In this document: positions 4,538 to 52,915 of the stretch, in pieces
How positions within the stretch are numbered: position 1 is the stretch's first letter
Layout of the letters: every line of letters begins with the position of its first letter
NCBI GenBank assembly: GCA_963808735.1
Contig: CAWEHE010000008.1
Location: forward strand, 192,719-256,718
DNA length: 64,000 nt
Source: an uncultured Thermoleophilia bacterium
Lineage (GTDB): Bacteria; Actinomycetota; Thermoleophilia; UBA2241
Direction: 5' to 3'
Translations under genes and position numbers: made by a program
Notes under the pieces: model-generated
The model's input: only the letters and a program-made list of their open reading frames with translations
Database searches by the model: none
Told to the model about the DNA's origin: nothing

Positions 4538-4539
4538 AG

Positions 4540-36793: not shown

Positions 36794-36801
<8 letters not shown>
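35229..36801 (+). CDS. pntA: NAD(P) transhydrogenase alpha subunit (PntA; alpha1 plus TM alpha2 part), apparent frameshift near 36015
   Basis: N-terminal AlaDH-like domain (VPRETATGETRIALVP, VLVLGVGVAGLQAI). After ..AAIPGPPVAE the frame switches to that of 36037 (KLITADVVDKMKPGAVIIDMAAEGGGNCE). The TM alpha2-like segment from about 36469 may be a separate pntAB gene. Confidence 0.75.
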
Positions 36802-38180
<1,379 letters not shown>

Positions 38181-38190
38181 CGACTCCTGC

Positions 38191-38556
38191 TCACGCGGCG
38201 TACCTCGCCGCGGTCATCCTGGCGGCGGGGGCCAGATGATGGCCCGCGCGGGCGCCGGGCAGCCGGAACCGCCACCTGTCCGACGGGATGTAGATCGACG
38301 GCACCCGGAGCGCGCCGGCGTCGGCGAGACGACGCGCGGCGAAGTCGCCGCTCATGCCGCCGGGGGCGAACGCCACGGCCCCGCCCGGGAGCGCCGAGCT
38401 CGACTGCGTCTGCCCGGCCATGAGGGCGGGCGCCGGCTGCGGGAGGCCGGCCGCCTGCGAGGGGGCGGGCGCCGACGCGATGAACGACCCGGCCACCGCG
38501 AGTGCCGCCAGCGACAGGACCAGGGCGACGGTCACGACTACGGACCTGCGTTCCAT
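38191..38556 (-). CDS. small secreted hypothetical protein
   Basis: ATG 38556 with a strong GAAAGGAGAG RBS. Signal peptide MERRSVVVTVALVLSLAALAVAGS. Confidence 0.5.
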   Translation of the reverse strand: MERRSVVVTVALVLSLAALAVAGSFIASAPAPSQAAGLPQPAPALMAGQTQSSSALPGGAVAFAPGGMSGDFAARRLADAGALRVPSIYIPSDRWRFRLPGARAGHHLAPAARMTAARYAA

Positions 38557-38764
38557 GGGTCTCTCCTTTCGCGTGCCTTCCCGATGCGGCGATGCGTCCC
38601 ACTCAACGTAGCGCGGCCCTGCCGCCGTCGCGTCACCCGGAACGGGTGATTCGCGGCGCAGTTCCCCGGCAGCTCGCGGGCGGGCCGTGCGCGCCGCGAC
38701 CGGCGGCCGGGTTACGTTCCCGGTCACCTCTTGAACCCGGCCGACGCCGCGCCAGACTGGGGCG

Positions 38765-39780
38765 GTGTCCGAGCTGATCGACCAGCTGCAGCGCGCCCTG
38801 CGGGCGCGCCACTACAGCCGCCGCACCGAGCAGGCCTACTGCCTGTGGGTGCGGCGGTACGTCCGCTTTCACGGGCTCCGCCACCCGGCAGACATGGCGG
38901 AGCCCGAGATCAACGCCTTCGTCACGCACCTGGCCGTCACCGAGCACGTCAGCGCCTCGACGCAGACCCAGGCGCTCAGCGCGCTCCTCTTCCTCTACCG
39001 CCACGTGCTGCACCGCCGGGTGGGCGAGCTCCACGAGCTGGTCCGCGCCCGCAAGCAGCCCCGCCTGCCGGTCGTGCTGAGCAGGGAGGAGGTCCGCGCC
39101 GTCCTCCACGAGCTCGACCGCGACGACCGCCAGAGCTGGCTGATCGCCTCGCTGCTCTACGGCGCGGGCCTGCGGCTATCCGAGTGCCTGCGCCTCCGCG
39201 TGCTCGACCTCGACCTGGCCCGAGGCGAACTCACCGTCCGCTCGGGCAAGGGCGGCAAGGACCGCGCCACGACGCTCCCGCGGGCGCTCGTCCCCGACCT
39301 GCGCGAGCAGCTGCGCCGCGCGCGCCTCCTCCACGAGCGCGACCTCGCCGCCGGCTGGGGCGCGGTCGAGCTGCCCGCGGCCCTGGAGCGCAAGTACCCG
39401 CGCGCCCCCTGCGAGTGGCGCTGGCAGTGGGTGTTCCCGCAGCGCGCCGCTGGACGGACAGAGGCACCGGCCGCCAGGGCCGCCACCACGTCCACCCGAC
39501 CAGCGTCCAGCGCGCCGTCCACGACGCCGTGCGGCGCGCCGGCATCGACAAGCACGCCACCTGCCACACGCTCCGCCACTCCTTCGCCACGCACCTGCTC
39601 GAGACCGGCTACGACATCCGCACCATCCAGGAGCTCCTCGGCCACAAGGACGTCGGCACCACCATGATCTACACCCACGTCCTGCAGCGCGGCGGCCAGG
39701 GCGTGCGCAGCCCGCTCGACTCCCTCGCACTCCAGCCGGCAACAGGCCGCCCCCATGGCAGAGGGTCAGAAAGGGAGTAA
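38765..39780 (+). CDS. intI: integron integrase IntI (tyrosine recombinase), apparent frameshift near 39470
   Basis: N-terminal frame: ..LRTEQAY-like [17 protein letters not shown], plus the IntI-specific additional domain [22 protein letters not shown]-terminal part in the +1 frame: [64 protein letters not shown] (box II, catalytic HxxR and Tyr). Confidence 0.85.
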
Positions 39781-40124
39781 TTCATGTGTAGTAAGCGGCC
39801 GCCGCTGCCGCCCTTCGAGTTCGATGTGCGCAAGAGCAGGGTCAACAAGCTCAAGCACGGCATCGACTTCGTCGAGGCGCAGGCGCTGTGGATGGTCGAC
39901 GCGCTCGACAACGAGGCCGTGCGCCTGGCGGTGACCCGGCAGTCGGTGATCAGGGTCTGGCTCTCGGAGAGGATCGACCGGAACTGGCGCGCGCTGGAGG
40001 CCGAGGACGCGCGCCGCAAGAAGCAGACTGGATAATCGGTTCTGCGAGCCCTGTGGTACCTTCTTATGCACAAGTCGGAGGCTGCAGCAGATGTCTTCTC
40101 TCTACTGCAGAAATGCAGTTAGCG
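39781..40124 (+). other. attI region (candidate); proposed crossover GTTAGCG at about 40118
   Basis: Lies between the intI stop and the first attC-bounded cassette. The only GTTRR-like site before the first cassette ORF. Not independently verifiable. Confidence 0.25.
39784..40035 (+). CDS. BrnT/DUF497-like toxin-family ORF (possibly degenerate, no partner)
   Basis: PFEFDVRKSRVNKLKHGIDFVEAQAL resembles the DUF497 N-terminus. Shorter than family members. Confidence 0.3.
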   Translation: MCSKRPPLPPFEFDVRKSRVNKLKHGIDFVEAQALWMVDALDNEAVRLAVTRQSVIRVWLSERIDRNWRALEAEDARRKKQTG

Positions 40125-40145
40125 TGCACATGGCGGTGTCCGAGC

Positions 40146-40682
40146 GTGAACAAGCGGTTCCAGCTGGCCTTCATCGATGAACTCAAGGCGCGCGGGTTCA
40201 AGAAGGCCGGACCGACCTGGCGCAAGCAGGCGGGCGACGCCATCACTGTGTTCAATCTGCAGGGGTCGCAGTTCGGTCCGTCTGTCTACGTCAACTTGGG
40301 CGTCTACTTCCGCCCGCTCGGCGAACTCGAGCGGCCCGACGAAGACCAGTGCCATCTCAGGGCCCGGCTCAGCATGCTCGTCCCCGACGCCGTTCGGCTT
40401 CGCGACCTCCTCGACCTCGATCGGCCGATCCCGGATGACGTCCGCTTCGCCGAGCTGCGGCAGCTGGCCGTGGACTACGCGCTACCGTGGCTCGAGCGGA
40501 CGGCTACTCGCCAGGGCGCCAAGGCATGGGTCACCGCTGGGCCGAATGCCGTTGTACACGTGAAGGCGAGGGTACCTGGGGGTTGCCCGTTGGCACCTAA
40601 CAAGCGGATCAAGCTGGCTCGCCGCGGCGCCGGCGGCCTCACGGGAGGCCGGCGCGCTCGCAGCTTATCCGCGGTGCGTTAG
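40146..40682 (+). CDS. cassette 1 ORF: DUF4304-like hypothetical protein
   Basis: GTG about 40146 (VNKRFQLAFIDELKARGFKKAGPTWRK..). ORF runs into attC and uses the TAG inside the GTTAG core. Confidence 0.45.
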   Translation: MNKRFQLAFIDELKARGFKKAGPTWRKQAGDAITVFNLQGSQFGPSVYVNLGVYFRPLGELERPDEDQCHLRARLSMLVPDAVRLRDLLDLDRPIPDDVRFAELRQLAVDYALPWLERTATRQGAKAWVTAGPNAVVHVKARVPGGCPLAPNKRIKLARRGAGGLTGGRRARSLSAVR

Positions 40683-40685
40683 CCC
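40596..40685 (+). other. attC site 1
   Basis: ACCTAAC..AAGCGGATCAAGCTG..stem-loop..CAGCTTATCCGCGGTGC GTTAGCC. Confidence 0.8.
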
Positions 40686-40855
40686 GGTCGACGGAGCGTT
40701 GTTGAGACTCGTCCTCATCATGGTTGCTGTGCGGCGTACTGGTCGCCGGCGCGTCGCGCATGCGGTGAACCCACGCAGCCCGCCTCGCCCTCTCCCTCCC
40801 AGAGCGGCTGGGCATCCGTGTCGAGCGGTGCGGGCACCTGGACCCGAAGGCCTGG

Positions 40856-41146
40856 GTGCGCGGCGAGAGGTTCCGGCTCACCGTAGGACCGGTCCGCGTC
40901 CGCCTCGTGCAAGAGACTCCTGCCGGGGAGCAGGTTGCTCTCGGCCTCGAGCTCGTCCCGCTCGCACCCGCCGCCGCTCGCAACCAGGCGAGCGCGGGCA
41001 CGAGCCGCGGCGTTCCGAGCGAAGACGGCCGGTCCATGGTCACCGAGTTCCGCACGACCAGGGACGTCCTCGCAGGCACCTACTGCCTCGAACTGCGCGG
41101 GACCGGCCGCTACACAGTCACGGTCTACAGCGCGACTTCGCCATGA
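40856..41146 (+). CDS. cassette 2 ORF: hypothetical protein
   Basis: 96-aa ORF, GTG start, beta-rich C-terminus (TYCLELRGTGRYTVTVYS). Other ORFs in this cassette are low complexity. Confidence 0.3.
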   Translation: MRGERFRLTVGPVRVRLVQETPAGEQVALGLELVPLAPAAARNQASAGTSRGVPSEDGRSMVTEFRTTRDVLAGTYCLELRGTGRYTVTVYSATSP

Positions 41147-41189
41147 GCGCTGCTCGCAGGCATGTAGGCCGGGGGTTGTACAGAGGACG

Positions 41190-41279
41190 GGCTAACAAGC
41201 GGATCAAGCTGGCTCGCCGAAGCGCCGGCGGCCTCACGAGCGGCCGGCGCGCTCGCAGCTTATCCGCGGTGCGTTAGGC
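41190..41279 (+). other. attC site 2
   Basis: GGCTAAC..GTTAGGC, type A arms. Confidence 0.8.
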
Positions 41280-41299
41280 GCACAGAGGCGGTGGCGCGG

Positions 41300-41735
41300 T
41301 GAAGCGAGCGTCAGCGGTCATCGTGCTCGCCGCGGGTTCAAGAAGGCCGGACTCGCCTGGCGCGAGCGGCGGGCGACGCCTCACTGTGTTCATCTGCAGC
41401 GGGTCGCAGCTCGGACGCGGCTGTCTACGGCAGACGTGGGAGCATCCGCCCGCTCGGCGAACTCGAGCTCGGCCGGCCGATGCCAGTGCCGCTCGGGCTC
41501 GGCTCGAGCTACTCGCCGCTGACGCCGCGTCGGCTTCGTCGAGCTCATCGACCTCGACCTGCTCAGTGCCGGCGACGTCGGCTTCGCTCGGCTGCGGCAG
41601 CTGGCGTGGACTACGCGCTGCCGTCTCGAGCGGCGGTCGCCTCGCCTACGGGCGCTCGAGGCATGGGCGCCGCTGGCGTCGGATGCCGTCGCAGCGCGAA
41701 GGCGAGCAGAGTAGCTGGGGGTTGGCGTGACGGCA
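41300..41735 (+). pseudogene. cassette 3: decayed paralog of the cassette-1 DUF4304 gene
   Basis: Nucleotide similarity to 40190..40590 (GGGTTCAAGAAGGCCGGAC, CACTGTGTTCA.CTGCAG, CGCCCGCTCGGCGAACTCGAGC, GAGCTGCGGCAGCTGGC.GTGGACTACGCGCT) with many indels and no intact ORF. Confidence 0.45.
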
Positions 41736-41823
41736 CCAACAAGCGGATCAAGCTGGCTCGCCGCGGCGCCGACGGCCTCACGAGAGGCCGGCGCGCTCGC
41801 AGCTTATCCGCGGTGCGTTAGGC
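41734..41823 (+). other. attC site 3
   Basis: CACCAAC..GTTAGGC, type A arms. Confidence 0.8.
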
Positions 41824-41839
41824 GCGGCAACGGGGCAGC

Positions 41840-42188
41840 ATGAATCAACCGATCCCAGACGTGACCATGGCCGACCTCGACCGGATCGTACGCGCGACTT
41901 CCCGCCGGGGGTCGCACGGGCAGGTTGTCAACATTCTGATTCGCTACGGCAGGGGAGACGGCGGAAAGAATCGCGTCTGCGCCGCCGCGTTGAAGCTAGC
42001 CGATGGCGACATCGAGCAGCTGGAGCACTACGATCTGACGAGGCCAGAAGCGACTACCGCGACGTCTTCGGCCTGGGCCGAGTATCCGGCCTACATGGAC
42101 TGCGTGCTCGGACCCAACGGACGAGAGCGAAGCCAAGGCGCTGATCGACGCTGACTGGGAGCAGTATCAGGACTGGTTCAGCCGGTGA
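41840..42188 (+). CDS. cassette 4 ORF: hypothetical protein (apparent frameshift near 42120)
   Basis: ATG 41840 (MNQPIPDVTMADLDRIVRAT..). The protein-like C-terminus DESEAKALIDADWEQYQDWFSR* is in the +1 frame and ends just before attC. Confidence 0.35.
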
Positions 42189-42195
42189 GCAAGCC

Positions 42196-42285
42196 GCCTA
42201 ACAAGCGCATCAACCTGACGCGCCCAACGGCTTCTGTAGCAACCTCAGACCGCAGCCCGCGCAGGTTATGCGCGGTGCGTTAGCC
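42196..42285 (+). other. attC site 4
   Basis: GCCTAAC AAGCGCATCAACCTG..CAGGTTATGCGCGGTGC GTTAGCC, type B arms. Confidence 0.8.
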
Positions 42286-42308
42286 GGGGCAGGTCGGGAG
42301 GTCACAGG

Positions 42309-42748
42309 ATGTCCACTGAACCAGGCAGGATTTCAGCCGCCGCCGGAGCCCGGCGGACCGCGTTGCCGCGCCCGTCGCGCTGGCGCCGCGCCGCTGGAAC
42401 TGGGGCGCCTTCATGTTCACCTGGCTCTGGGGCCTGTTCAACGGTGCCTGGTGGCCGCTGCTCGGCCTTCTGCTCGCGCTCGTCCCCTCGGTCGAGCTTT
42501 GGCGCCACGCGCTCCCCGGCGGCGGCAGCGTCTGGGTCTCCACCGGCACCCTGCTCTACACCGCCTGGTCGGTGTTCTGCGGCCTCATGGGCGACCGCTG
42601 GGCCCTTCGCAGCCGCCGGTGGCGTGACGCCGCCCACTTCCGCAGCGCTCAGCACAACTGGGCGGTGGCCGCCCTCGTCGTCGCCATCGTCCTCGCCGTC
42701 GTGGTCGTCGCCGTGCTCGCCGCGGCGTCGGCGGGGCTCATCTCCTGA
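42309..42748 (+). pseudogene. cassette 5: DUF2628-family membrane protein, frameshifted copy
   Basis: Near-identical to cassette 7 but with one C missing in GAGCCCCGG (about 42345). ATG 42309 reads out of frame; the FNWGAF-type motif WNWGAFMFTWLWGLF is in the other frame (track ORF 42413..42748). Confidence 0.5.
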
Positions 42749-42770
42749 CCATATGTCTGTTGTTGCGCCC

Positions 42771-42861
42771 GGCTAACAAGCGGATCAAGCTGACTCGACA
42801 AACGGCTTCCGTAGTATCCTCGAAGCGGAAGCGCTCGCAGCTTATCCGCGGTGCGTTGGGC
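42771..42861 (+). other. attC site 5
   Basis: GGCTAAC..GTTGGGC. Confidence 0.8.
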
Positions 42862-42918
42862 AGAGCAGGCGGCCCGCGGGATTTCCCTTCTCGCGCCGTA
42901 GGAAGGGGGAGGTGAGCC

Positions 42919-43266
42919 GTGTCGAAGCGCAGCATCATCGTCCTGTTCGTGATCGTCGCCGCCGGCGTTTGATCCTGGCCGTCACGATTCCGCCTCTCCT
43001 CAGCTCGCCGTCCCAGATCGCCCAGAAGGCAGCCGGTACCTGGCAGGAGGTTGGTGAGGCGCCTGCATACACCATGCAGGTCGTTGGCGCCGGCTCCACC
43101 TATCTGGTCAGCTACCCGCGCTGGCGCTATGACCGTGAAGGCTTTCTCTCTTCAGGGCGACGAGCTCGTCGGGGGCGGTGGCGAGAACACCATGAACGAC
43201 ATGGTGAAGACCATCACCTACGACAATGGGGCCGATCAGCTCACCATCAGCGACGAAGAGCGGTGA
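42919..43266 (+). CDS. cassette 6 ORF: small secreted protein (two compensating apparent frameshifts)
   Basis: GTG 42919 after GGGGGAGGTGA. Signal/TM VSKRSIIVLFVIVAAGV continues as LILAVTIPPLL only after a 1-nt shift at GTTTGATC. Frame returns near TTTCTCTCTT to give ..LQGDELVGGGGENTMNDMVKTITYDNGADQLTISDEER*. Confidence 0.3.
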
Positions 43267-43588
43267 CACGGTACACCCTTCAGCGCGTAGACCGTCCGGC
43301 CGGGATCGTCGGCGTGATGCGCGAGGCGGGCGGACGGTACCCGGGCCTCAGGCGCATGCCCAACGTGCTCATCGAGGTCCGCTGTGCAGTCGGCGGATGG
43401 CCCCGTCGTCTCCAACGCGACCTCCGGCAAGAAGGGGACGTTCAAAGTCACCGTCGCACCGGGTCGCTACTGGGTCGTACCGGTGGCCAAGGGCGACGAG
43501 CAGGTGGTGGCCGATGCGGTGTCGGTCGAGGCAGGTTCGTACGTCGCGGCGAAGCCGTTCTTCTCAGTCAGGTGAGCTGCAGTGGCCT

Positions 43589-43675
43589 GCCCAACAAGCA
43601 CATCAACCTGATGCACCCGAAGGGAGCAGTGGACTCACGGTCAACGGCGCACAGGTTATGTGCCGGACGTTAGCC
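43589..43675 (+). other. attC site 6
   Basis: GCCCAAC AAGCACATCAACCTG..CAGGTTATGTGCCGGAC GTTAGCC, type B variant. Confidence 0.75.
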
Positions 43676-43698
43676 GGGGCAGGTCGGGAGGTCACAGG

Positions 43699-44139
43699 AT
43701 GTCCACTGAACCAGGCAGGATTTCAGCCGCCGCCGGAGCCCCGGCGGACCGCGTTGCCGCGCCCGTCGCGCTGGCGCCGCGCCGCTGGAACTGGGGCGCC
43801 TTCATGTTCACCTGGCTCTGGGGCCTGTTCAACGGTGCCTGGTGGCCGCTGCTCGGCCTTCTGCTCGCGCTCGTCCCCTCGGTCGAGCTTTGGCGCCACG
43901 CGCTCCCCGGCGGCGGCAGCGTCTGGGTCTCCACCGGCACCCTGCTCTACACCGCCTGGTCGGTGTTCTGCGGCCTCATGGGCGACCGCTGGGCCCTTCG
44001 CAGCCGCCGGTGGCGCGACGCCGCCCACTTCCGCAGCGCTCAGCACAACTGGGCGGTGGCCGCCCTCGTCGTCGCCATCGTCCTCGCCGTCGTGGTCGTC
44101 GCCGTGCTCGCCGCGGCGTCGGCGGGGCTCATCTCCTGA
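43699..44139 (+). CDS. cassette 7 ORF: DUF2628-family membrane protein (intact copy)
   Basis: ATG 43699 with GGGAGG RBS. MSTEPGRISAAAGAPADRVAAPVALAPRRWNWGAFMFTWLWGLFNGAWWPLLG.., 2-3 TM helices. Confidence 0.6.
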   Translation: MSTEPGRISAAAGAPADRVAAPVALAPRRWNWGAFMFTWLWGLFNGAWWPLLGLLLALVPSVELWRHALPGGGSVWVSTGTLLYTAWSVFCGLMGDRWALRSRRWRDAAHFRSAQHNWAVAALVVAIVLAVVVVAVLAAASAGLIS

Positions 44140-44172
44140 CCATATGTCTGTTGTTGCGCCCGGCTAACAAGC

Positions 44173-44262
44173 GGATCAAGCTGACTCGACAAACGGCTTC
44201 CGTAGTATCCTCAAGCGGAAGCGCTCGCAGCTTATCCGCGGTGCGTTAGGCGCACAGTAAGA
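44173..44262 (+). other. attC site 7
   Basis: GGCTAAC..GTTAGGC. Near-identical to attC 5. Confidence 0.8.
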
Positions 44263-44559
44263 CGGAACGTGTGAGACCGTCCTCTCTGAGCGTGAACGAA
44301 CTGGTAGTTGGCGCTCGAGCATGCGCTGAACGCCAGCGCCCGCTCATCGCCCGACCTTCTTCGCAGACGCTGCCGTGTGGAGTCGATGCGTGCTACGCTG
44401 GCCTCGGCTCGCAGCGGAGCGGAGCCGGCTACACCGCCGGCGACGTAAGCACGTGCACGAGACCGGTGGAGCAGCTGCGCATCCAGAACTCGGTCGCGCT
44501 CGCACGACGACGGCGTTCGCCGGTGAGCGCCGTGTCTTCGAGCTCGCGGCTCCGACGCG

Positions 44560-44743
44560 ATGCGGCAGGCCATCGACACCGAGGTCCGCGCGATCTCGGA
44601 CGCTCCTCGCAGCTCGCTGCACTGCTTCGAGATCACTGTGCGGCGATGCGCTCGCTGCATCAATCATGGTCTCGCGCGACTACGCAAAAGCGATGTTCCG
44701 GCACGACGAGGTCCGGGCGTTGTCGGAGGCGAATGGTGCCTAA
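44560..44743 (+). CDS. cassette 8 ORF: small hypothetical protein (frame uncertain)
   Basis: ATG 44560 (MRQAIDTEVRAISDAPRSSLHCFEITV..). A +1 frame ends ..MVSRDYAKAMFRHDEVRALSEANGA* using the TAA inside the attC inverse core. Confidence 0.2.
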
Positions 44744-44826
44744 CAAGCGGATCAAGCTGGCTCGCCAAAGCGCCGCGGCAAGACGAGAGGCCGCGGCGCT
44801 CGCAGCTTATCCGCGGTGCGTTAGAC
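44738..44826 (+). other. attC site 8
   Basis: GCCTAAC..GTTAGAC, type A. Confidence 0.8.
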
Positions 44827-44846
44827 AGGCACGGTGAGGCGGCAAG

Positions 44847-45302
44847 GTGGACCTCAATCTGCGACCGGCCTCGAAGCGAGATCGGGAGTTCCTCTACGCG
44901 CTGCACTGCTCCACCATGCGCGACGTGATCGAGCAGACATGGGGCTGGGATGAGGCCTGGCAGCGTGCCGACTTCGAGAAGCGTTTCGAGGTGTGCGCCG
45001 TCTCGATCATCGAGGCCGGAGCGCGCTCTGTCGGGAGTCTGTGGCTCGAGCAGCGACCCGACTCGCTCTACATCCACGAACTGCAGGTGACGCCCCCACA
45101 ACAGGGTAGGGGAATCGGCACGGCGGTGATCGAGATGGTGATCGAGCAGGGTGCCAGTCGCGGACTGCCGATCGTCCTCTCGGTCGTCCCGGCGAACCCA
45201 CGCGCCCGCGATTTGTACGAACGATTGGGCTTCAGAGTGACGTGCGTCGAACCACCATTCATTCGCATGCGACATGACGCGCGCCTAGCGGGAGCTGTCT
45301 AA
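44847..45302 (+). CDS. cassette 9 ORF: GNAT-family N-acetyltransferase
   Basis: 151 aa. Motif A QQGRGIGTAVIEMVIEQ. Stop TAA lies within the inverse core GTCTAAC. Confidence 0.75.
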   Translation: MDLNLRPASKRDREFLYALHCSTMRDVIEQTWGWDEAWQRADFEKRFEVCAVSIIEAGARSVGSLWLEQRPDSLYIHELQVTPPQQGRGIGTAVIEMVIEQGASRGLPIVLSVVPANPRARDLYERLGFRVTCVEPPFIRMRHDARLAGAV

Positions 45303-45386
45303 CATGCGCGTCAACCTGACGCGGTCAACGGTTTCTGTAGTAACTTGGGAGCGCGGCCCGCGCAGGTTACGCGCGGTGCGTTGGAC
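45297..45386 (+). other. attC site 9
   Basis: GTCTAAC ATGCGCGTCAACCTG..CAGGTTACGCGCGGTGC GTTGGAC, type B. Confidence 0.8.
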
Positions 45387-45403
45387 CGACTGACGGAGGG
45401 GTT

Positions 45404-45940
45404 GTGAGGATCGGGGCCGTTCTTCTATTCGTTGTCGCACTCTTGGGGCTCTCCGCATGCGGTCAGTCATCGTCCACCTTTGCGCCGTCGCCCACGTCGA
45501 CGCCCGCCGCTGTCAGCTATGCCGACCCGGCCGAACTGTACGCCGCTATCGAGAAGGCGGGCGCGCCGAAGGTCGAGGGCTTCGGCAGCGGCACGTTCAG
45601 CGAGGGCGGCTCGATGCCAGCTGACGCCAAGGCCGAGCGCGGCAACTTCATGGCCGCCATCTCCTCCGACCGCTACATGCTCTCGCTCGCCGACGGGACG
45701 CCGGCCGTGTCGATGGTTGCAGCCGTCTTCCCTGACGCGGCCTTGCGGGACCTTGGCGTGGCTTTCGGGCAGCATCTCGCCGCCGCGCTCGGGAACCCGT
45801 CTGAGCCGCAACTGCAGGGACCGAACTGGCTCATCTGGGGCGACGAGGAGGCGCTGCGGGCGATCCAGGGCGCGATTGGCGGCGAGATGGGTCGCACGCC
45901 CACCGTCACGGTGTCGCCCGAAGCGGGAGCCGCATCTTGA
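45404..45940 (+). CDS. cassette 10 ORF: lipoprotein, hypothetical
   Basis: Signal peptide plus lipobox LLGLSAC. 178 aa. Confidence 0.6.
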   Translation: MRIGAVLLFVVALLGLSACGQSSSTFAPSPTSTPAAVSYADPAELYAAIEKAGAPKVEGFGSGTFSEGGSMPADAKAERGNFMAAISSDRYMLSLADGTPAVSMVAAVFPDAALRDLGVAFGQHLAAALGNPSEPQLQGPNWLIWGDEEALRAIQGAIGGEMGRTPTVTVSPEAGAAS

Positions 45941-45974
45941 CGTTGCGCAAGGCCATGTGGCAGGTGTTAGAGCG

Positions 45975-46064
45975 GTCCAACCAGCGGATCAAGCTGGCTC
46001 GCCGCAGCGCCGGCGGCCTCACGAGAGGCCGTCGCGCTCGCAGCTTATCCGCGGTGCGTTGGGC
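45975..46064 (+). other. attC site 10
   Basis: GTCCAAC..GTTGGGC, type A. Confidence 0.8.
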
Positions 46065-46097
46065 GCATCCACACCCTATCGCGGAGGTCGGGATGCC

Positions 46098-46529
46098 ATG
46101 AATCGTGAGCACGTGCCGGTGGGCTTCCTGCTGATCGCCGCCTTCTACGCGCTGGGCGTCGCTGCGGTGACGTTCACGCTCTTCACCAACCGGGATGAGG
46201 TCGGCGCCCAGCTCGCTGCCGTGCATGGTCTCACCATGCTTGCCGGCCCTGCCAGCATGCTGCTCACGATCGCGGCGGGCGCCATGGTCGTGGTCGCGTT
46301 CTGCAGACCGCGGCCCTGGGCCTTCTGGCTCGTCGTCGGGTACATGGTGTACCTGCTCATCATCCCCCGACTCATGGTGGGGCCGAACGGCATCTCGGTC
46401 TTCGCCAACGTCGTCTGGCCTCTGTTCATGCTGGCCTATCTCCTTTGGCGGCATCGCTACTTCGGTATCGGCAGGCCCTTGGAGCGCCCAACAAGCGCAT
46501 CGAGCAGAACGCCAGCAGGTCTGCCGTGA
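46098..46529 (+). CDS. cassette 11 ORF: hypothetical 4-TM membrane protein
   Basis: ATG 46098 after GGAGGTCGGG. MNREHVPVGFLLIAAFYALGVAAVTF.. 143 aa. 3' end overlaps attC. Confidence 0.5.
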   Translation: MNREHVPVGFLLIAAFYALGVAAVTFTLFTNRDEVGAQLAAVHGLTMLAGPASMLLTIAAGAMVVVAFCRPRPWAFWLVVGYMVYLLIIPRLMVGPNGISVFANVVWPLFMLAYLLWRHRYFGIGRPLERPTSASSRTPAGLP

Positions 46530-46572
46530 ACCGGCAGGCCGACCGCGTCTGCTCATGCGCGGTGCGTTAGCC
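46486..46572 (+). other. attC site 11
   Basis: GCCCAAC AAGCGCATCGAGCAG..CTGCTCATGCGCGGTGC GTTAGCC, type C arms. Confidence 0.8.
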
Positions 46573-46604
46573 CCATCAACTGCACTGCCTGGGAGGATGC
46601 GTCC

Positions 46605-47267
46605 GTGAATCCCATCGAACGCAGGGTTCGGGCCCACATCATGAACCGCCTGCTCGAGACGGGCGAGGCGCCGAGCGTGAGCCAGGTCTCGGACTCGCTT
46701 GAGATCTCGCGAGCAGACGTGATCGCCGGTCTTCACTCACTCGCAGCTCAGCATCGTCTCGTCTTGCGGCCCGCCTCGGACGCGATCTGGATGGCGCATC
46801 CGTTCTCAGGGATCGAGACGGACTTTGTAGTGAACGCGGCCGGCCGCACATGGTACGCGAACTGCGTTTGGGACGGGCTTTCGATTCTCGGTCACGTCGG
46901 CGACGGACGACTTGAGACGCACTCGCCACAGACAGGGGAGGCCATCCGCTTCGACGTCGAAGACGGCCGCGTAGTAGGTGATGCGATCGTCCACTTCCTC
47001 GTGCCTGCGAAGCTGTTCTGGGATGACATAGGGTTCACGTGAGCCAACATCTCGGCCTTCCGGTCGGAAGGCGAACTCAGCTCGTGGCTGACGTCGACGG
47101 GGTATGCGGTCGGTGCAGTGGTGAGCCCGCAGACCGTCTATGACCTCGGGCGCGACTGGTACGGAACCAGACTCGACCTGGACTTTCAGCCGTTCACGCC
47201 CGAGCAGGCGCAGGACACCTTCGCGAAGCATGGGCTTGTCGGCGCGTTCTGGTCGCTGGTCTCATGA
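46605..47267 (+). pseudogene. cassette 12: MerB-like organomercurial lyase interrupted by an in-frame TGA (47040-47042)
   Basis: N-terminal HTH-like region, then TWYANCVWDGLSILGHVG and ..FLVPAKLFWDDIGFT-TGA-ANISAFRSEGELSSWL..LVS*. The two pieces are in the same frame and total about 220 aa, like MerB. Confidence 0.5.
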
Positions 47268-47269
47268 GG

Positions 47270-47356
47270 GGCTAACAAGCGCATCGAGCAGAACGCCACA
47301 AGGTCCGCCGCACAGCGGCAGGCCAGCCGTGTCTGCTCATGCGCGGTGCGTTAGTC
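47270..47356 (+). other. attC site 12
   Basis: GGCTAAC..GTTAGTC, type C. Confidence 0.8.
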
Positions 47357-47425
47357 ACAGCCTCCTCCACTGGTCGAGAGGGTACGTTAGTGGTACCGTG
47401 ACCGGTAGTACAGGAGGTAGCGTCA

Positions 47426-47701
47426 ATGGCATCAGTACCCGACATCGTACCCATCACCGACCTGCGCCAGGACGCCTCGGGCGTGATCAAGCGGGCCGCC
47501 GACACCCAGCAGCCGGTGTTCATCACGCAGCGCGGTCGCGCGTCCGCCGTCGTCGTCAGCGCGAAGGCCTACGAGCGCACGCAGCACGAGCTCGAGATCC
47601 TGCGCCTGCTCGCCACCGGCGAGGCCGAGATCGAGGCCGGCACCGGCCACGCGCTGGCAGACGTGTTGGCCGAGGCTGACGAGCTGCTCGGCAGGCCGTG
47701 A
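47426..47701 (+). CDS. cassette 13: Phd/YefM-family antitoxin
   Basis: 91 aa. PITDLRQDASGVIKRAADTQQPVFITQRGRASAVVVSAKAYE. Confidence 0.75.
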   Translation: MASVPDIVPITDLRQDASGVIKRAADTQQPVFITQRGRASAVVVSAKAYERTQHELEILRLLATGEAEIEAGTGHALADVLAEADELLGRP

Positions 47702-48006
47702 GCCGCAGGGTCCTCTTCACCCCCGCAGCCCGCGAGCAGTTCCTCGCGGCGCTCGCCTACATCGCGGGCGACGACCCGGCGGCAGCGCGGAATCTGCGCG
47801 ACCGCGCCGGCGCATCGCTCGCGCACCTCGCCGACTACCCGGAATCGGGGCGCGTGCTGCGTGAGTTCCCTGACCTGCCGTTTCGCGAGGTCATCGTGCC
47901 GCCGTACCGCTTCTTCTACCGCGTCAAGGACGACGCGGTGTGGGTGGTCGCGGCCTGGCACTCGGCCCAGCTTCCCGGCGAGCCGGAGGACGTTGGGCGT
48001 GACTAA
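47698..48006 (+). CDS. cassette 13: ParE/RelE-family toxin
   Basis: GTG overlaps the antitoxin stop. LFTPAAREQF..EVIVPPYRFFYRV..VWVVAAWH. Stop TAA inside the inverse core GACTAAC. Confidence 0.7.
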   Translation: MSRRVLFTPAAREQFLAALAYIAGDDPAAARNLRDRAGASLAHLADYPESGRVLREFPDLPFREVIVPPYRFFYRVKDDAVWVVAAWHSAQLPGEPEDVGRD

Positions 48007-48091
48007 CAAGCGGATCAAGCTGGCTCGCCGGCAGCGTCTACGGTACACTTCGTACCGTGAGCGCTCGCAGCTTATCCGCGGTGCGTTGGGC
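48001..48091 (+). other. attC site 13
   Basis: GACTAAC..GTTGGGC, type A with a divergent central loop. Confidence 0.8.
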
Positions 48092-48184
48092 ATACGCTCG
48101 GCGACCCGTGGCGGAGTCCGGAGCGCAGGGTGGACGTTGCCCTCGGGTCGTTGCATTTCCGCAGTCTCCGGTTATACTCACGGT

Positions 48185-48418
48185 ATGAAGACGGCGATCT
48201 CCATACCCGACGACCTGTTCGCCGACGCCGAGCAGCTGGCTCGGGAGCTGAAGAAGTCGCGCAGCAGCCTCTACGGGGACGCGGTGCGTGAGTACGTCGC
48301 CCGCCACTCCGCCGAGAGCATCACCGAGGGCCTGGATCGCCTCTGCGACGAGGTCGATTGCCGCAGCGATTTCGCCGGTGCCGCTGCGCGCCGCACCTTC
48401 GAGCGTAGCGACTGGTGA
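48185..48418 (+). CDS. mazE: cassette 14: ribbon-helix-helix (CopG/MazE-like) antitoxin
   Basis: 77 aa. MKTAISIPDDLFADAEQLARELKKSRSSLYGDAVREYV. Confidence 0.65.
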   Translation: MKTAISIPDDLFADAEQLARELKKSRSSLYGDAVREYVARHSAESITEGLDRLCDEVDCRSDFAGAAARRTFERSDW

Positions 48419-48756
48419 CCGCCCAGGGCGAGGTCTGGTGGGCCGACCTGGGCGAGCCCTCCGGCTCCGAGCCCGGCTTCCGCCGCCCCGTCGTCGTCGT
48501 GCAGGGCGACGCCTTCAACCGCAGCCGCATCGCCACCGTCGTCTGCGTCGCGCTGACCAGCAACCTGCGCTGGGCCGACGCCCCCGGCAACGTCCTCCTC
48601 AGCGCGCGCGCTACCGGTCTGCCCAAGGATTCCGTGGCCAATGTCTCGCAGCTCGTGACCGTCGACCGCGAGGCGCTCACCGAGCGCGTCGGCGCCCTGC
48701 CCGCGAAGAAGCTCGAGCTTGTGCTGCTCGGCATCGACATCGTCCTCGGGCGTTGA
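48415..48756 (+). CDS. mazF: cassette 14: MazF/PemK-family endoribonuclease toxin
   Basis: GTG overlaps the antitoxin stop. GEVWWADLGEPSGSEPGFRRPVVVVQGDAFN.. Confidence 0.75.
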   Translation: MTAQGEVWWADLGEPSGSEPGFRRPVVVVQGDAFNRSRIATVVCVALTSNLRWADAPGNVLLSARATGLPKDSVANVSQLVTVDREALTERVGALPAKKLELVLLGIDIVLGR

Positions 48757-48763
48757 CGCGATT

Positions 48764-48853
48764 GCCCAACAAGCGGATCAAGCTGACTCGCAGATGCGCC
48801 GGCGGCCTCACGGGAGGCCGGCGCGCTCGCAGGTTATGCGTGGTGCGTTAGGC
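48764..48853 (+). other. attC site 14
   Basis: GCCCAAC..GTTAGGC, mixed A/B arms (AAGCTGACTCGC / CAGGTTATGCGTGG). Confidence 0.8.
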
Positions 48854-48875
48854 GCGCGGAGGACCACGGAGACCG

Positions 48876-49478
48876 ATGTATTACGGGCTGCTTATCTACC
48901 CCAACGGCGTGGACGAGGCCCTCGTAGGCAGGATACGTCGTAAGTACGATCCCACGGTCGATGTCATCGCCCCGCACGTGCCGGTCGTCTATCCGGTTCC
49001 CGACGGGGTGGGACGCGACCTGCTCATCTCTCACATTCGGAACGTCACGCTCGCCTGCGCGCCCTTCGAGATCCGCCTCGGCGCCCTGCACCGGTCAGCC
49101 GACCACTGGCTCTTCTTCACGCCGGTCGACGGCAAGGAGGACCTGAGGCGCCTCCATCTAGGTCTCCACACCGGCCTCCTGGCCGAGTTCCGCGAAGCGG
49201 ACAGGGACTACGTACCGCACGTCGGCCTCGGCCACTTCATGAGAGAAGGCGCGACCTACGACTGGGAGAACCCACGCGAAGAGGACTTCGATGCCGAGAG
49301 GTACGAGGCCGCCGTCCGGGAGGCGCAGCCCCTCCTCGATGGTCCAGCCGAGCGTATCGACACGCTCCATCTGGTCACCATCCCCGACGCGGCGGTCGAG
49401 TGGTTCAGTGGAGAGGGGTCGACGTTCCCGAGGGACTCCCGAGCTGAAGAGGTGTGCGCGTTCACGTTCGGCGCCTAA
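48876..49478 (+). CDS. cassette 15 ORF: hypothetical protein (possibly 2H-phosphoesterase-like)
   Basis: 200 aa, no confident family. Stop TAA inside the inverse core GCCTAAC. Confidence 0.5.
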   Translation: MYYGLLIYPNGVDEALVGRIRRKYDPTVDVIAPHVPVVYPVPDGVGRDLLISHIRNVTLACAPFEIRLGALHRSADHWLFFTPVDGKEDLRRLHLGLHTGLLAEFREADRDYVPHVGLGHFMREGATYDWENPREEDFDAERYEAAVREAQPLLDGPAERIDTLHLVTIPDAAVEWFSGEGSTFPRDSRAEEVCAFTFGA

Positions 49479-49562
49479 CAGGCGCATCGAGCAGATTGGC
49501 CCGCAGGCTATGATGTCGGCGAAGGCGCAGGGAGCCAACTGCTCATGCGCGGTGCGTTCGGT
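49473..49562 (+). other. attC site 15
   Basis: GCCTAAC AGGCGCATCGAGCAG..CTGCTCATGCGCGGTGC GTTCGGT, type C. Confidence 0.75.
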
Positions 49563-49581
49563 GGACCATGGAGGCGGGACG

Positions 49582-49980
49582 GTGAAGGCGCTGCTCGGCA
49601 TCGCGATCTTGTTGCTGGCGACGGTTCTCATCGCCTGCGGCGATGCGCAGCAGCCAGCGACGTGCAGCATCGAAGAGCCGTTGCTCTCAGTCCTCGTCAC
49701 GCCCGGGGGCCTCTACGTCGATGACCAAGTCGAACCGGTCACCCTCGCGCAGCTCGACACGATGTTCGCGGCCCTCGCCGATCAGCACGGCGAGGTACGC
49801 TTGGACAGCTTGGCCCCACTCGGCGGCTTCGCGCCGACAAGCTGGGAGCGCTCGAAGGTCGACCACCACTCGGGGCAGGTGGCTGCCCTCGTCAGCAAGC
49901 ATGGCCTCCACATCGTCACCGAGGCCGGCCGCATGCCGGTACGGGGCTGGGCGAGCCCGCCTGGGGGTGTCGACCCGTGA
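49582..49980 (+). CDS. cassette 16 ORF: lipoprotein, hypothetical
   Basis: GTG 49582 after GGAGG. VKALLGIAILLLATVLIACGD (lipobox LIAC). Confidence 0.55.
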   Translation: MKALLGIAILLLATVLIACGDAQQPATCSIEEPLLSVLVTPGGLYVDDQVEPVTLAQLDTMFAALADQHGEVRLDSLAPLGGFAPTSWERSKVDHHSGQVAALVSKHGLHIVTEAGRMPVRGWASPPGGVDP

Positions 49981-49984
49981 GGCC

Positions 49985-50068
49985 ACCGAACAAGCGCATC
50001 AAGCTGGCCCGCAGTAGACTCTACGCTGAAAGCCGTAGCCCGCGCAGGTTATGCCCGGTGCGTTAGAC
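49985..50068 (+). other. attC site 16
   Basis: ACCGAAC AAGCGCATCAAGCTG..CAGGTTATGCCCGGTGC GTTAGAC. Confidence 0.75.
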
Positions 50069-50085
50069 CGACCAATCGAGGACCG

Positions 50086-50670
50086 TTGATTCGCACCCCC
50101 AGCCGCGCCGCCGTCGACCTGTACTGGATCCCCCTGGGCGCCGGTGGCCACGTCGTGCGGCTCAACGGCAAGGTCTTCGAGGCCGTGGTGTCAACGTTCG
50201 AACGCCGGTCCCCCCTCGACCTCTATCACTCGGCGCTTGAGGTGCGCGTGCCGGAGGGCCGCTACACGATTGAGAGTGCCCCGGTTCCGAACGCCCACGC
50301 GCATGAGCGTGGGGCCGTCTCTGGCGGTCCCGTCGGGAGCCGTTGGGCCGGGCGCCTGCGCATCTTTCGCTACGAGATCCGGTGCTGGCCTGGCGGGGTC
50401 ATCCCCGACCTCGGGGAGGCGGTCGAGAGCCCTCAGCGAATGACCGAGGATGAGGCGCGCGCCCGGAGTGTGCTCGCTCTCGCGCCCTGCGTGCCCACAC
50501 CCGTCTGGGGGCGCGATGAGCTGCAAGCCGGCGAGATGTGGAACTCGAACTCGATCATCTCCTGGCTCCTTGTGCGCAGCGGTCTGGGTGTGGAGTCGGC
50601 CAGTATGCCGAGTGGCGGGCGCGCTCCCGGATGGGATGCGGGTCTCGTCGTGGCGCGGCGGCAGGTCTAA
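50086..50670 (+). CDS. cassette 17 ORF: hypothetical protein
   Basis: TTG 50086 after GAGGAC. 194 aa. Stop TAA inside the inverse core GTCTAAC. Confidence 0.45.
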   Translation: MIRTPSRAAVDLYWIPLGAGGHVVRLNGKVFEAVVSTFERRSPLDLYHSALEVRVPEGRYTIESAPVPNAHAHERGAVSGGPVGSRWAGRLRIFRYEIRCWPGGVIPDLGEAVESPQRMTEDEARARSVLALAPCVPTPVWGRDELQAGEMWNSNSIISWLLVRSGLGVESASMPSGGRAPGWDAGLVVARRQV

Positions 50671-50749
50671 CAAGCGCAGCGAGCAGAACGCCAGCACGTA
50701 GACTCAATCCCAAACGCTGCCGCGTCTGCTCATGCGCGGTGCGTTAGCG
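50665..50749 (+). other. attC site 17
   Basis: GTCTAAC AAGCGCAGCGAGCAG..CTGCTCATGCGCGGTGC GTTAGCG, type C. Confidence 0.8.
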
Positions 50750-50823
50750 GTACAGCGAGTCGTGAGGGGAATGTCCACCACTCGGGTGCTGCGTCCGTCC
50801 GGGGCGCGGGGGAGACTGAAGCC

Positions 50824-51054
50824 ATGCGCAGCACCGATCTCGATATCTCCAAGATCTCCGTGGCCGAGCGTATCCAGCTCGCCGAGGACATCTGGGACAG
50901 CGTCGCCGCCGAGACCGGCGACCTCCCGCTCACCGAGGCCCAGGCCGCCGAACTCGATCGTCGCCTTGCCGACCTCGAGCGCGACCCGGACGCCGGTGAG
51001 AGCTGGCCGGTCGTGCGCGCCCGCATCGAGCAGCGTCTGGACGAGGCCGGCTGA
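50824..51054 (+). CDS. cassette 18: putative addiction-module antitoxin component
   Basis: 76 aa acidic helical protein (ISVAERIQLAEDIWDSV..LTEAQAAELDRRLADLERDPDAG) typical of small antitoxin families. Confidence 0.5.
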   Translation: MRSTDLDISKISVAERIQLAEDIWDSVAAETGDLPLTEAQAAELDRRLADLERDPDAGESWPVVRARIEQRLDEAG

Positions 51055-51057
51055 GGC

Positions 51058-51352
51058 ATGCGCCTCGTCGTCCGCGAGGCGGCCGAGGCGGACATCGCCG
51101 AAGCCGCACGCTGGTACGAGCGGCGCTCCCCCGGCCTCGGCTCGGAGTTCCGGGTGCGCTCAGCGTCGAGGCGATCACAGCGCCCGACGCCGCGAGACTG
51201 CTCATGGCCACCAGCGGCCAGCCGGTGCTGGTGAGCGACGACCTAGGCCTGACGTGGTCCGCAAGCGGCCACGCCTCTTGGCTCGGTGATGGCCCTGCCT
51301 GCGACATCGCCGCTGTTATGACCGTGCAGTACCTGGGGAGCAAGGGAGCCTA
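51058..51352 (+). pseudogene. cassette 18: ParE/RelE-like toxin remnant
   Basis: MRLVVREAAEADIAEAARWYERRSPGLGSEFRV.. then loses the family pattern. Ends at the degenerate last attC. Confidence 0.35.
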
Positions 51353-51440
51353 GCAGGCGCATCGAGCAGGGCACTCTAGGATCTATCGCACGGCGGCCGG
51401 CCGGCCGCGCCTGCTCATGCGCGAAGCGCTGGATGGACCG
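51348..51440 (+). other. attC site 18 (degenerate, end of array)
   Basis: GCCTAGC AGGCGCATCGAGCAG..CTGCTCATGCGCGAAGCGCTGG. Inverse core mutated (TAGC) and the GTTRRRY core lost. Confidence 0.5.
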
Positions 51441-51657
51441 CCATGTCCGGCCGGGCGCCGCGCCGGGGAGAAGGATCTCGCCGGAGCCGTGGCCGGGCAT
51501 AGACGGTCTCCTCGTCACCACGGTCCGAGGATTCGCAGTGCCGTCTTTGGGATACGACGCATACGAGCGTGACGGATGATCGAGGCCTCAGGCAGAAGCG
51601 GCACGGTGGCGGTGGCTTCCACTGATCGAAGTCCGGCACCGGGATAGGGGAACACAC

Positions 51658-52056
51658 ATGGTGAAGAGTGCGCCGCAGGATGGCCGGTCTCCCTCTCAGC
51701 TGATCGACGCGAGGATCGAGGAGCTGGGCGACTGGCGGGGCGAGATGCTCAGCCGGCTCCGTGCCTTGGTCAGGGAAGCCGACCCTGAAGTCGTCGAGGA
51801 GTGGAAGTGGAGAGGCGTTCCGGTGTGGTCCCACGACGGAATGGTCTGCACAGGCGAGACCTACAAGAACGTCGTGAAGACGACGTTCGCCAAAGGGGCC
51901 GCTCTGGAGGATCCGTCGGACCTCTTCAATTCCAGTCTCGAAGGGAAGACGAGGCGCGCCATCGACTTCCACGAAGGCGAGAAGATCGACGAGGAGGCGT
52001 TGAAGGCTCTCGTCCGCGCCGCCGTGGCACTGAACACGTCGCGAGCCAAGAGGTAG
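51658..52056 (+). CDS. DUF1801 (YdhG-like) domain protein
   Basis: 132 aa. LIDARIEELGDWRGEMLSRLRALVREADPEVVEEWKW. Confidence 0.6.
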   Translation: MVKSAPQDGRSPSQLIDARIEELGDWRGEMLSRLRALVREADPEVVEEWKWRGVPVWSHDGMVCTGETYKNVVKTTFAKGAALEDPSDLFNSSLEGKTRRAIDFHEGEKIDEEALKALVRAAVALNTSRAKR

Positions 52057-52183
52057 TCCACGCGATGAGGACGGGCCGCGCCGCAGGTCGCTCGACGCCC
52101 GGCACGCGCGTCGACCGCGTCTTCATCGAGCGCCTGGGCGGGCCCGGGACCCCGTCCGGCGAGCGCACCAACAGGGAGGGGAC

Positions 52184-52915
52184 ATGAGGCCGTTCATCCA
52201 TCATCGCGCCGGGGTCCTCGGCGTCGTTCTCGTCGTCGTGGCTGCGGCTACGCTCGTCGCCTATGCTCGGGCAGGTGGTGCTCCTGCGGCCTCGCAGCAG
52301 TCGGCGCCCGTGTGGCTGGACACTGCGTCGCCCGCGCTGACCGGCCACGACGTCGCCGTCAGCGGTGGCATCGACGCGCAGGCGGACCTCTCGGGCACCG
52401 CCGTCAAGATCTACAAGCGTGAGGTGGGCGAGAGCGTCGATACGCTCGTCGGCGACGCGCCCGTCACGTTCAACGTCATGAGCGGGAACGTGTTCGATGC
52501 CGTCATTCCCGCCGTGGCGCGCAGCTGCATCGTCACCGTCTCGTGGGAAGGCAACGCGGACTACCTCGCCTCGACCACGTGGATGTTCGCCGGCGTGAGG
52601 CCGAAGCTCGTGATCAGGGCGCCGGTTGCCACGCGCACGGAGACACGGGTGCGGGTCACGATCGCGCCCGAGCAGCCGCTTCACCGCCAGGGCATGACGC
52701 GGCCGCCGTTCCTCGCCGACGTCCAGTGCCGCAGGCACGGCGTGTGGACGAGGTTCCCCGCGGAGCTCGGAAACATGGGCACCGACGGCGAGTCCTGGTG
52801 CCTCTACACCTTCTACGACGTGAAGCCCGGAACCTATGTGATCCGGGCACGCTTCGCCGGCACCAACTACAACGTCGCGTCGGTGTCGAGGATCACGCGC
52901 ATCATCGTGCCGTGA
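52184..52915 (+). CDS. secreted hypothetical protein
   Basis: Signal peptide LGVVLVVVAAATLVAYARA. 243 aa, no family recognised. Confidence 0.5.
   Translation: MRPFIHHRAGVLGVVLVVVAAATLVAYARAGGAPAASQQSAPVWLDTASPALTGHDVAVSGGIDAQADLSGTAVKIYKREVGESVDTLVGDAPVTFNVMSGNVFDAVIPAVARSCIVTVSWEGNADYLASTTWMFAGVRPKLVIRAPVATRTETRVRVTIAPEQPLHRQGMTRPPFLADVQCRRHGVWTRFPAELGNMGTDGESWCLYTFYDVKPGTYVIRARFAGTNYNVASVSRITRIIVP

Follow-up and report, generated by a model that had tools for sequence, protein, structure and literature searches.

In attC sites, extrahelical bases on the L'' side steer the integron integrase IntI to the bottom strand. These are a G at position 16 and a T at position 23 or 24, with a spacing of 6 base pairs (bp) (PMC5027507). 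Surveys of complete genomes found no complete integron in Actinobacteria (PMC4889954, PMC9024848), and a 2026 study of metagenome-assembled genomes (MAGs) describes a 'virtual absence' of integrons in Actinomycetota (PMC13323075). The 11 taxa modelled in PMC8352920 do not include Thermoleophilia (Actinomycetota). Our literature search on integrons in Thermoleophilia and related genera returned resistance-gene surveys only, with no description of the elements reported here, and a 2026 preprint on cassette recovery mentions no actinobacterial host. Here, we describe a series of 18 hairpin-forming repeats in a stretch of 64,000 nucleotides (nt) from an uncultured Thermoleophilia bacterium (contig CAWEHE010000008.1, positions 192,719 to 256,718), called the window below. 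The repeats are very probably the attC sites of a sedentary chromosomal integron in an actinobacterium of high guanine-plus-cytosine (GC) content related to MAGs labelled Thermoleophilia, and their arm types are swappable versions of the hairpin in one pool.

All 18 sites lie on the plus strand between 40594 and 51435. A covariance model made from these sites found nothing else above noise in the 64 kilobases (kb). The pattern GCGSATCRASCWG for the 5' arm, searched with at most one mismatch, gave 26 matches against 4.2 expected by chance, and 18 of these form a regular series from 40604 to 51357. The pattern for the 3' arm and its spacer gave 17 matches against 0.16 expected. An initial annotation had placed 18 sites within 40596-50749. 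The number stands, but only 17 of them fall in this interval, and the eighteenth lies beyond it at 51347-51435.

The copies are 86-93 nt long. On the top strand they read R'' (xCTAAC), AA, GCGSAT, C, RASCWG, a variable centre of 41-44 nt, CWGSTY, ATSCGC, GGTGC, and R' (GTTRRRY). The two ends, RYYYAAC in R'' and GTTRRRY in R', are mutually complementary. They were read in all 18 sites, where the five R-box pairs are 93% paired, and s18 is degenerate. The flanks AACAAGCG and GCGGTGCGTT are homogeneous across the sites, whereas the centres and arms are not. The three arm types that the initial annotation had distinguished (A, B, and C) are all found again in the arms of the window, and the sites are as follows.

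40594 to 40685, plus strand: attC site s01, type A.
41189 to 41280, plus strand: attC site s02, type A.
41733 to 41824, plus strand: attC site s03, type A; its R'' (CACCAAC) mismatches the preceding R'.
42195 to 42286, plus strand: attC site s04, type B, the sole exact type B in the window.
42770 to 42862, plus strand: attC site s05, type A with a different central region.
43588 to 43676, plus strand: attC site s06, a compensated variant of type B (GCACAT/ATGTGC).
44161 to 44252, plus strand: attC site s07, type A, on a duplicate of the s05 cassette.
44737 to 44827, plus strand: attC site s08, type A.
45296 to 45387, plus strand: attC site s09, type B' (GCGCGT/ACGCGC, compensated).
45974 to 46065, plus strand: attC site s10, type A.
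46485 to 46573, plus strand: attC site s11, type C.
47269 to 47357, plus strand: attC site s12, type C.
48000 to 48092, plus strand: attC site s13, type A, on the Phd/ParE cassette.
48763 to 48854, plus strand: attC site s14, a mispaired hybrid with the 5' arm and centre of type A and a type B-like 3' arm (CAGGTT-ATGCGT).
49472 to 49563, plus strand: attC site s15, type C.
49984 to 50069, plus strand: attC site s16, a hybrid (GCGCAT-C-AAGCTG / CAGGTT-ATGCCC) with two mispairs.
50664 to 50750, plus strand: attC site s17, type C with one mismatch (GCGCAG).
51347 to 51435, plus strand: attC site s18, type C arms with degenerate R'' (CCTAGC) and R' (GCTGGAT), at the array end.

The arms of these sites form a helix that is maintained by compensatory changes. 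RNAalifold on the 18 sites gives a 12-bp arm helix, in which columns 11-16 pair with 76-81 and columns 18-23 with 70-75, while the invariant C of column 17 stays unpaired. Compensatory double changes occur in six of the 12 arm pairs. When the R-box pairs are added, 96.4% of the cells are paired and eight pairs change on both sides. The observed covariation was reached by none of 500 shuffles. Sliding the 3' partner by one to three columns lowered pairing to 21-39%, and mis-registration, which could have mimicked covariation, is therefore excluded. Folding the bottom strand as single-stranded DNA recovers the arm helix with its bulged extra base in the minimum-free-energy or the centroid structure of 16 of the 18 sites. 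In s04 and s18 it appears in the centroid only, and it is absent from the hybrids s14 and s16. Alignment and folding thus bear out the proposal of the initial annotation that the arms remain complementary through compensatory changes. Its count of six co-varying positions needs correction, since the three named types differ at four base pairs (eight positions). In addition, s06 (GCACAT/ATGTGC) and s09 (GCGCGT/ACGCGC) each have a compensated pair of their own.

The same pattern of pairing is found in related genomes. A total of 185,579 species-representative genomes were scanned with a pattern of the fixed flanks only, in which the covarying arm positions were left free. The scan yielded 94 stretches (L001-L094) from about 38 MAGs, mostly with Thermoleophilia labels and many of them Microflora Danica assemblies. 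From these stretches, nhmmer and the covariance model recovered about 500 attC sites. There were 516 matches (the best-scoring 150 were used for covariation), 498 sites were typed, and 481 sites are distinct. The best-scoring 150 of the 516 matches are 97.4% paired, and again none of 500 shuffles reached their covariation. The 481 distinct sites contain 25 distinct perfectly paired arm haplotypes, and the types of the 5' and 3' arms are concordant in 355 sites and discordant in 14. Pairing has therefore been maintained across many variants and not just three. Among the 498 typed sites, type A is found in 126, B' in 84, C in 40, B in 21, and a perfectly paired A/B intermediate in nine. Type B', carried by s09 in the window, is the second commonest type in the related genomes. 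The two richest MAGs hold 54-57 detected sites each, and the largest single array has at least about 50.

The hairpin also carries the unpaired bases that are characteristic of attC sites, for which we used the definitions of extrahelical G16 and T23/24 given in PMC5027507. The unpaired C of column 17 is at position 16, counted from the 7-nt R'', in 18 of 18 window sites, and the top-strand base at this position is C in 472 of the 481 distinct related sites. On the recombined bottom strand, this bulged C corresponds to G16, the canonical extrahelical base. The same arm has another unpaired element at position 23, 6 bp beyond the C. In types B and C it is a single nucleotide, usually T on the bottom strand, and in type A it is a 3-nt bulge. 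Of the 481 sites, 462 have this second element on the same arm as the C, with one unpaired nt in 226 sites and three in another 226; 15 have it on the opposite arm, and four lack it. Where at least three pairs follow (195 sites), the single nucleotide of types B and C is a top-strand A (bottom-strand T) in 168. In type A, only two pairs follow the 3-nt bulge, and its side and spacing are conserved. The spacers between core and arm are 2 nt (AA, with the variants AT, CA, and AG) on one side and 5 nt (GGTGC) on the other. Measured from R box to L box, the spacer arms are AAGCG (5 nt) and CGCGGTGC (8 nt). Their pairable GCG/CGC is nearly invariant, which leaves 2 + 5 nt unpaired. Two further points of the initial annotation, that the unpaired C corresponds to an extrahelical base for strand choice and that the spacers are unequal (2 nt versus 5 nt), hold with these data.

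Three further features of the window place these sites in an integron.

38765 to 39780, plus strand: intI, the integron integrase gene, upstream of the array and on the same strand as the cassettes.
39781 to 40118, plus strand: attI region, ending at the first recombination junction between G and TT (GTTAGCG at 40118).
40119 to 51435, plus strand: cassette array of 18 cassettes, each ending in attC, delimited from open reading frames (ORFs) and the 18 model matches.

The frame-repaired IntI scores 459 bits over its full length on the TIGR02249 integron integrase model (cut-off 265). Its match to VchIntIA (PDB 2a3v; E = 5e-89) also spans the full length, including the ALERKYP...WQWVFP segment. 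An IntI with the integron-specific insertion thus adjoins attI and the array, as in a complete integron. Among the related stretches, 21 loci show both intI and attC sites; in all 21 the gene precedes the sites on the same strand, and it is intact in 12. The closest IntI among the fetched loci, none of which is the window itself, is 92.9% identical to that of the window. The end of attI is marked from both sides. The sequences that directly follow intI in L044, L094, and L077 resemble the window up to about 40112-40138, and homologues of cassette 1 in L080 and L083 begin at 40118. On the other side of intI, six MAGs (five with a Thermoleophilia label and one labelled Actinomycetes) share the synteny of the pntAB flank, at 84-95% nucleotide identity. 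The pntAB match reaches to about 100-300 nt from intI in L081, L028, and L048. In L060, L089, and L008, the pntAB flank is about 1.4-2.2 kb from intI, or intI was not found in the locus. The flank matches one MAG labelled Thermoleophilia at 92% over 5.5 kb, and this similarity by itself makes a Thermoleophilia genome the most likely source of the window. Because pntAB synteny is accompanied by a conserved intI/attC arrangement in the relatives, the element is, judged from its sequence, a vertically inherited sedentary chromosomal integron with the 'inverted integrase' layout.

The units between the sites behave as cassettes. The R'' of a site matches the R' of the preceding site at 5.3 of six variable positions and its own R' at 3.1 of six, which none of 10000 permutations equalled. 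R'' thus belongs to the cassette's own 5' boundary. Sites are spaced 450-830 bp apart, with an ORF in every spacer. Single cassettes of the window recur in other MAGs and in other array contexts at 85-98% identity, and the homology stops at the boundaries between G and TT. The cassette ORFs are all on the plus strand, and among their products are DUF4304, a GNAT acetyltransferase, a MerB-like protein, Phd/ParE, RHH/MazF, a member of the 2'-5' RNA ligase family, and Unstab_antitox. This repertoire is typical for chromosomal integrons.

By analogy with described integrons, the bottom strand would fold into a hairpin whose R and L boxes would be bound by the IntI encoded upstream. To pick the strand, IntI would read two features of the same arm, the extrahelical G16 and the unpaired element at position 23. 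It would then cut between the G and TT of R', so that cassettes could be excised and inserted as units. All arm types are presumably accepted by the same integrase. We propose that the compensatory changes preserve the hairpin because IntI recognises structure and not sequence. Cassette sharing and duplication, as read from the sequences, bear indirectly on this predicted recombination of the bottom strand by IntI.

Several points weigh against this interpretation. The sequences show the anatomy, the covariation, the integrase family, the cassette boundaries, the sharing of cassettes between genomes, and the swapping of types, whereas folding in vivo, the strand used, and recombination activity are what we infer from the analogy. 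The R-L spacer is unusual, with arms of 5 and 8 nt and three pairing bases instead of 5-6 nt each, and the single T that would be expected is replaced by a 3-nt bulge in type A. The bottom strand has no advantage in folding energy or GC skew across these sites (mean difference 0.00 kcal/mol, p = 0.76), whereas attC sites of mobile integrons do show a bottom-strand bias in folding and skew (PMC5027507). The harvest pattern and models were derived from this window, and other attC types in the related arrays could have been missed. Finally, intI carries a 1-nt deletion near 39455 relative to the intact copies in L081 and L094, and the frameshifted copy of the window may be inactive. However, the housekeeping gene pntA (35229-36809) is also frameshifted. 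Its frame switches near 36010-36040, with the N-terminal part in one frame and 'MVDKMKPGAVIIDMAAEGGGNCELT...' in another, and sequence indel errors are therefore a plausible cause of the intI frameshift. The pntA frameshift suggests indel errors as in long-read MAGs, which bears on intI and on several broken cassette ORFs. Counts of stop-free stretches in the window and in L081 did not make the indel error rate discernible at 70% GC.

Around these main features, some additional observations were made. A short ORF (39784-40035) between intI and the attI junction gives a weak match to the N-terminus of a BrnT toxin, below the Pfam cut-off, and the region of this BrnT-like fragment is 78-83% conserved in three related MAGs. 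Five stretches with the same attC family come from MAGs labelled Alphaproteobacteria, delta proteobacterium, or Armatimonadota: L025 and L059 (CAWAIR), L019 (CAWGJT), L037 (JBLMXT), and L034 (JAKPQA). Where intI is seen in them, IntI is 88-92% identical to that of the window. These labels could reflect mislabelling, mis-binning, or transfer of a whole integron. In L032 (CAWCAH010000008.1, 1-8000), attC sites are on both strands, minus at 1832-2462 and plus at 3660-7725, perhaps because part of the array is inverted or because two arrays face each other.

Further observations concern the cassettes. Two cassettes for a small membrane protein (42282-42857 and 43672-44247) are identical at 574 of 576 nt (99.7%) with one cassette between them, and the pair looks like a recent cassette duplication. 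Cassette 3 (41276-41819) is a copy of the DUF4304 cassette 1 (40119-40680) at 84% identity with about 50 small indels. Its R'' mismatches its 5' boundary, and the copy is a pseudo-cassette in decay or else a repeat that was poorly polished. In cassette 1, the DUF4304 ORF begins (40146-40170, GTGAACAAGCGGTTCCAGCTGGCC, 'VNKRFQLA') with a close resemblance to the 5' half of attC (TAACAAGCGGATCAAGCTGGCT, 'NKRIKLA'), which may be coincidental or may reflect a leftover half-site. Four cassette ORFs, those for GNAT, ParE, the 2'-5' ligase family, and a 194-aa protein, stop at the TAA within R'' (CTAAC; 45300, 48004, 49476, and 50668). There are three toxin-antitoxin cassettes: Phd/ParE (47426-48006), RHH/MazF (48185-48756), and Unstab_antitox with an apparently truncated toxin (50824-51300). 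The Phd/ParE cassette is found in at least 14 related MAGs. The MerB-like ORF (alkylmercury lyase family, 46605-47266) has a stop at 47040-47042, and its coding potential appears to run on to about 47266. Over the window and L001-L094, cassette length differs with the terminal type, with medians of 654 nt for C, 500 nt for A, and 442 nt for B (Kruskal-Wallis p = 3e-11).

The coexistence of several arm types has two different possible meanings. The initial annotation had suggested different donor pools. In this reading, the types mark three sets of cassettes from other taxa or integrons, each with its own attC type. The attC sites of sedentary integrons are usually homogeneous and taxon-specific (PMC8352920, PMC4889954), and several types could then suggest a mixed origin. 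The repeat of this array is not homogeneous, with three or four discrete arm types and a central-region identity of about 0.6-0.78. Centres are somewhat more alike within a type (median identity 0.64-0.78) than between types (0.59), and cassette length varies with type. However, every related MAG with at least 10 detected sites mixes types A, B, and C, including genomes with an IntI that shares only about 73% identity with that of the window. Neighbouring types are independent along the arrays (chi-square p = 0.16), and cassette GC is equal among types (0.683 in A, 0.674 in B, and 0.678 in C), near the host value of 0.70. Furthermore, 10 of 51 cassette families have more than one arm type. With the types interleaved in every large array and swapped on homologous cassettes, separate donor pools are an unlikely source of the three types.

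Homologous cassettes show how the types change. The Phd/ParE cassette ends in type A in the window and three other MAGs, in B' in one MAG, and in C in three. In these cassettes the 3' end of the gene and R'' are conserved (GTGACTAAC in six and GTGACCAAC in L010), followed by AAGCG. More generally, pairs of homologous cassettes with discordant types match in R'' at 4.86 of five positions, compared with 3.16 in random pairs. Their centres are 0.44 identical, compared with 0.77 in concordant pairs. Type discordance is absent above 95% cassette identity, whereas at 85-95% there are 24 discordant and 34 concordant pairs. Discordance at this distance together with a retained R'' points to replacement of the hairpin body as a unit on a moderate timescale. 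These data argue for one cassette pool shared by the clade, with hairpin modules moving between cassettes. Since the hairpin body is exchangeable while R'' stays, the arm type does not report the origin of the cargo gene.

For the process itself, our proposal is more tentative, and we put its chances somewhat short of even. The hairpin body from L'' to L' might move between cassettes as a module, through recombination within the site just after R'', with the cassette retaining its gene and R''. Two routes can be envisaged. Rare cleavage of the top strand by IntI at the AAC of R'' could join the gene of one cassette to a downstream hairpin, with deletion of the interval. Alternatively, short-homology recombination could take place in the shared flanks AACAAGCG and GCGGTGCGTT. 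Both routes would predict the same product. Hybrid sites, s14 among them, have the look of scars left by such recombination within a site.

Hairpin exchange has a bearing on the covariation, too. Arm complementarity could be upheld by a mutational mechanism, such as template switching, hairpin repair, or wholesale copying of hairpins, and not by functional selection. That inverted repeats mutate by template switching is well established. Whole hairpin bodies have clearly been copied or exchanged between cassettes, and much of the covariation among types A, B, and C therefore represents inheritance of a few ancestral modules and not many independent events. This mechanism sits poorly with the 25 perfectly paired haplotypes, since many rare ones have their own compensated pair. 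A symmetrising process would also erase the asymmetric unpaired bases, which are kept (the C in 472 of 481 sites). Mispaired hybrids are rare as well, at 14 against 355 concordant sites. We therefore consider it improbable that mutation without selection accounts for the complementarity.

It is also conceivable that the hairpins act mainly as RNA, as terminators or as elements of translation or stability, with their integron setting of secondary importance. Transcripts of the top strand contain the hairpin, covariation cannot separate the folding of DNA from that of RNA, and four cassette ORFs end in the TAA of R''. However, positions 38000-52500 contain no match to an Rfam family at the gathering thresholds, and direct reading finds no T-runs after the hairpins. 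The boundary logic of R'' and R', the adjoining IntI, and the sharing of cassettes as units are explained by site-specific recombination instead, which makes a primary role as RNA very unlikely. Generic intergenic palindromic repeats unrelated to integrons, such as repetitive extragenic palindromic (REP), miniature inverted-repeat transposable element (MITE)-like, or clustered regularly interspaced short palindromic repeat (CRISPR)-like elements, would share the regular spacing and dyad symmetry, but the spacing varies (450-830 bp) with an ORF in each spacer, the ends are RYYYAAC and GTTRRRY, an IntI gene is adjacent, and nothing similar is found elsewhere in the 64 kb, so that this explanation has almost no chance of being right.

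The reading as attC sites of a sedentary integron is, in most of its parts, familiar. The attC anatomy, the compensation, and the strand-choice base seen here are established integron biology and not new. Less ordinary is a complete integron at a conserved chromosomal locus in a Thermoleophilia-like genome, with the same system in about 38 MAGs. The coexisting hairpin types are a natural marker system for the sequence freedom that IntI tolerates. The finding of the same cassette with different hairpins across genomes calls for caution in tracing cassette origin by attC similarity, and hairpin swapping gives a handle on attC homogenisation within arrays. If swapping is general, it would be a concrete mechanism by which attC sites become homogenised in large chromosomal arrays, as has long been noted, and attC type would be an unreliable tracer of cassette origin.

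With mobile-integron attC sites (for example attCaadA7 and attCoxa2) and the repeats (VCR) of the Vibrio cholerae superintegron, the sites of the window have in common R'' (RYYYAAC), R' (GTTRRRY), and an extrahelical G16 in the L box. A terminal structure that varies and an R'' that forms the cassette's own 5' boundary are also common to them. Another unpaired base at position 23, separated from the first by a 6-bp stem, is shared by types B and C. At about 84-91 bp, the sites of the window fall inside the known attC range of 57-141 bp. The L'' of type A (GATCAAGC) is one that we take to be close to the L'' of the aadA 59-base element. The sites differ from the mobile attC and VCR in their spacer, which has 5 + 8 nt with three potential pairs (2 + 5 nt unpaired) where 5-6 unpaired nt per arm are usual. 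They also differ in the 3-nt bulge of type A for a single T, in the lack of a bottom-strand bias in stability or purine skew, and in their very high GC.

In its layout, the locus is like the inverted-integrase integrons of the Treponema denticola type, in which intI points towards attI and lies on the cassettes' strand (PMC3607928, PMC4889954). This layout is also treated in PMC13323075. As in the Treponema-type integrons, the element is chromosomal and combines many cassettes of unknown function with toxin-antitoxin cassettes, whereas its host belongs to an actinobacterial class. The attC sites are also like the taxon-specific families of sedentary integrons in Vibrionales, Xanthomonadales, and other groups (PMC8352920) in that they are conserved in a clade, are all recognised by one covariance model, and form large arrays. 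Unlike those families, which have one homogeneous repeat, each array here combines three or four discrete arm types.

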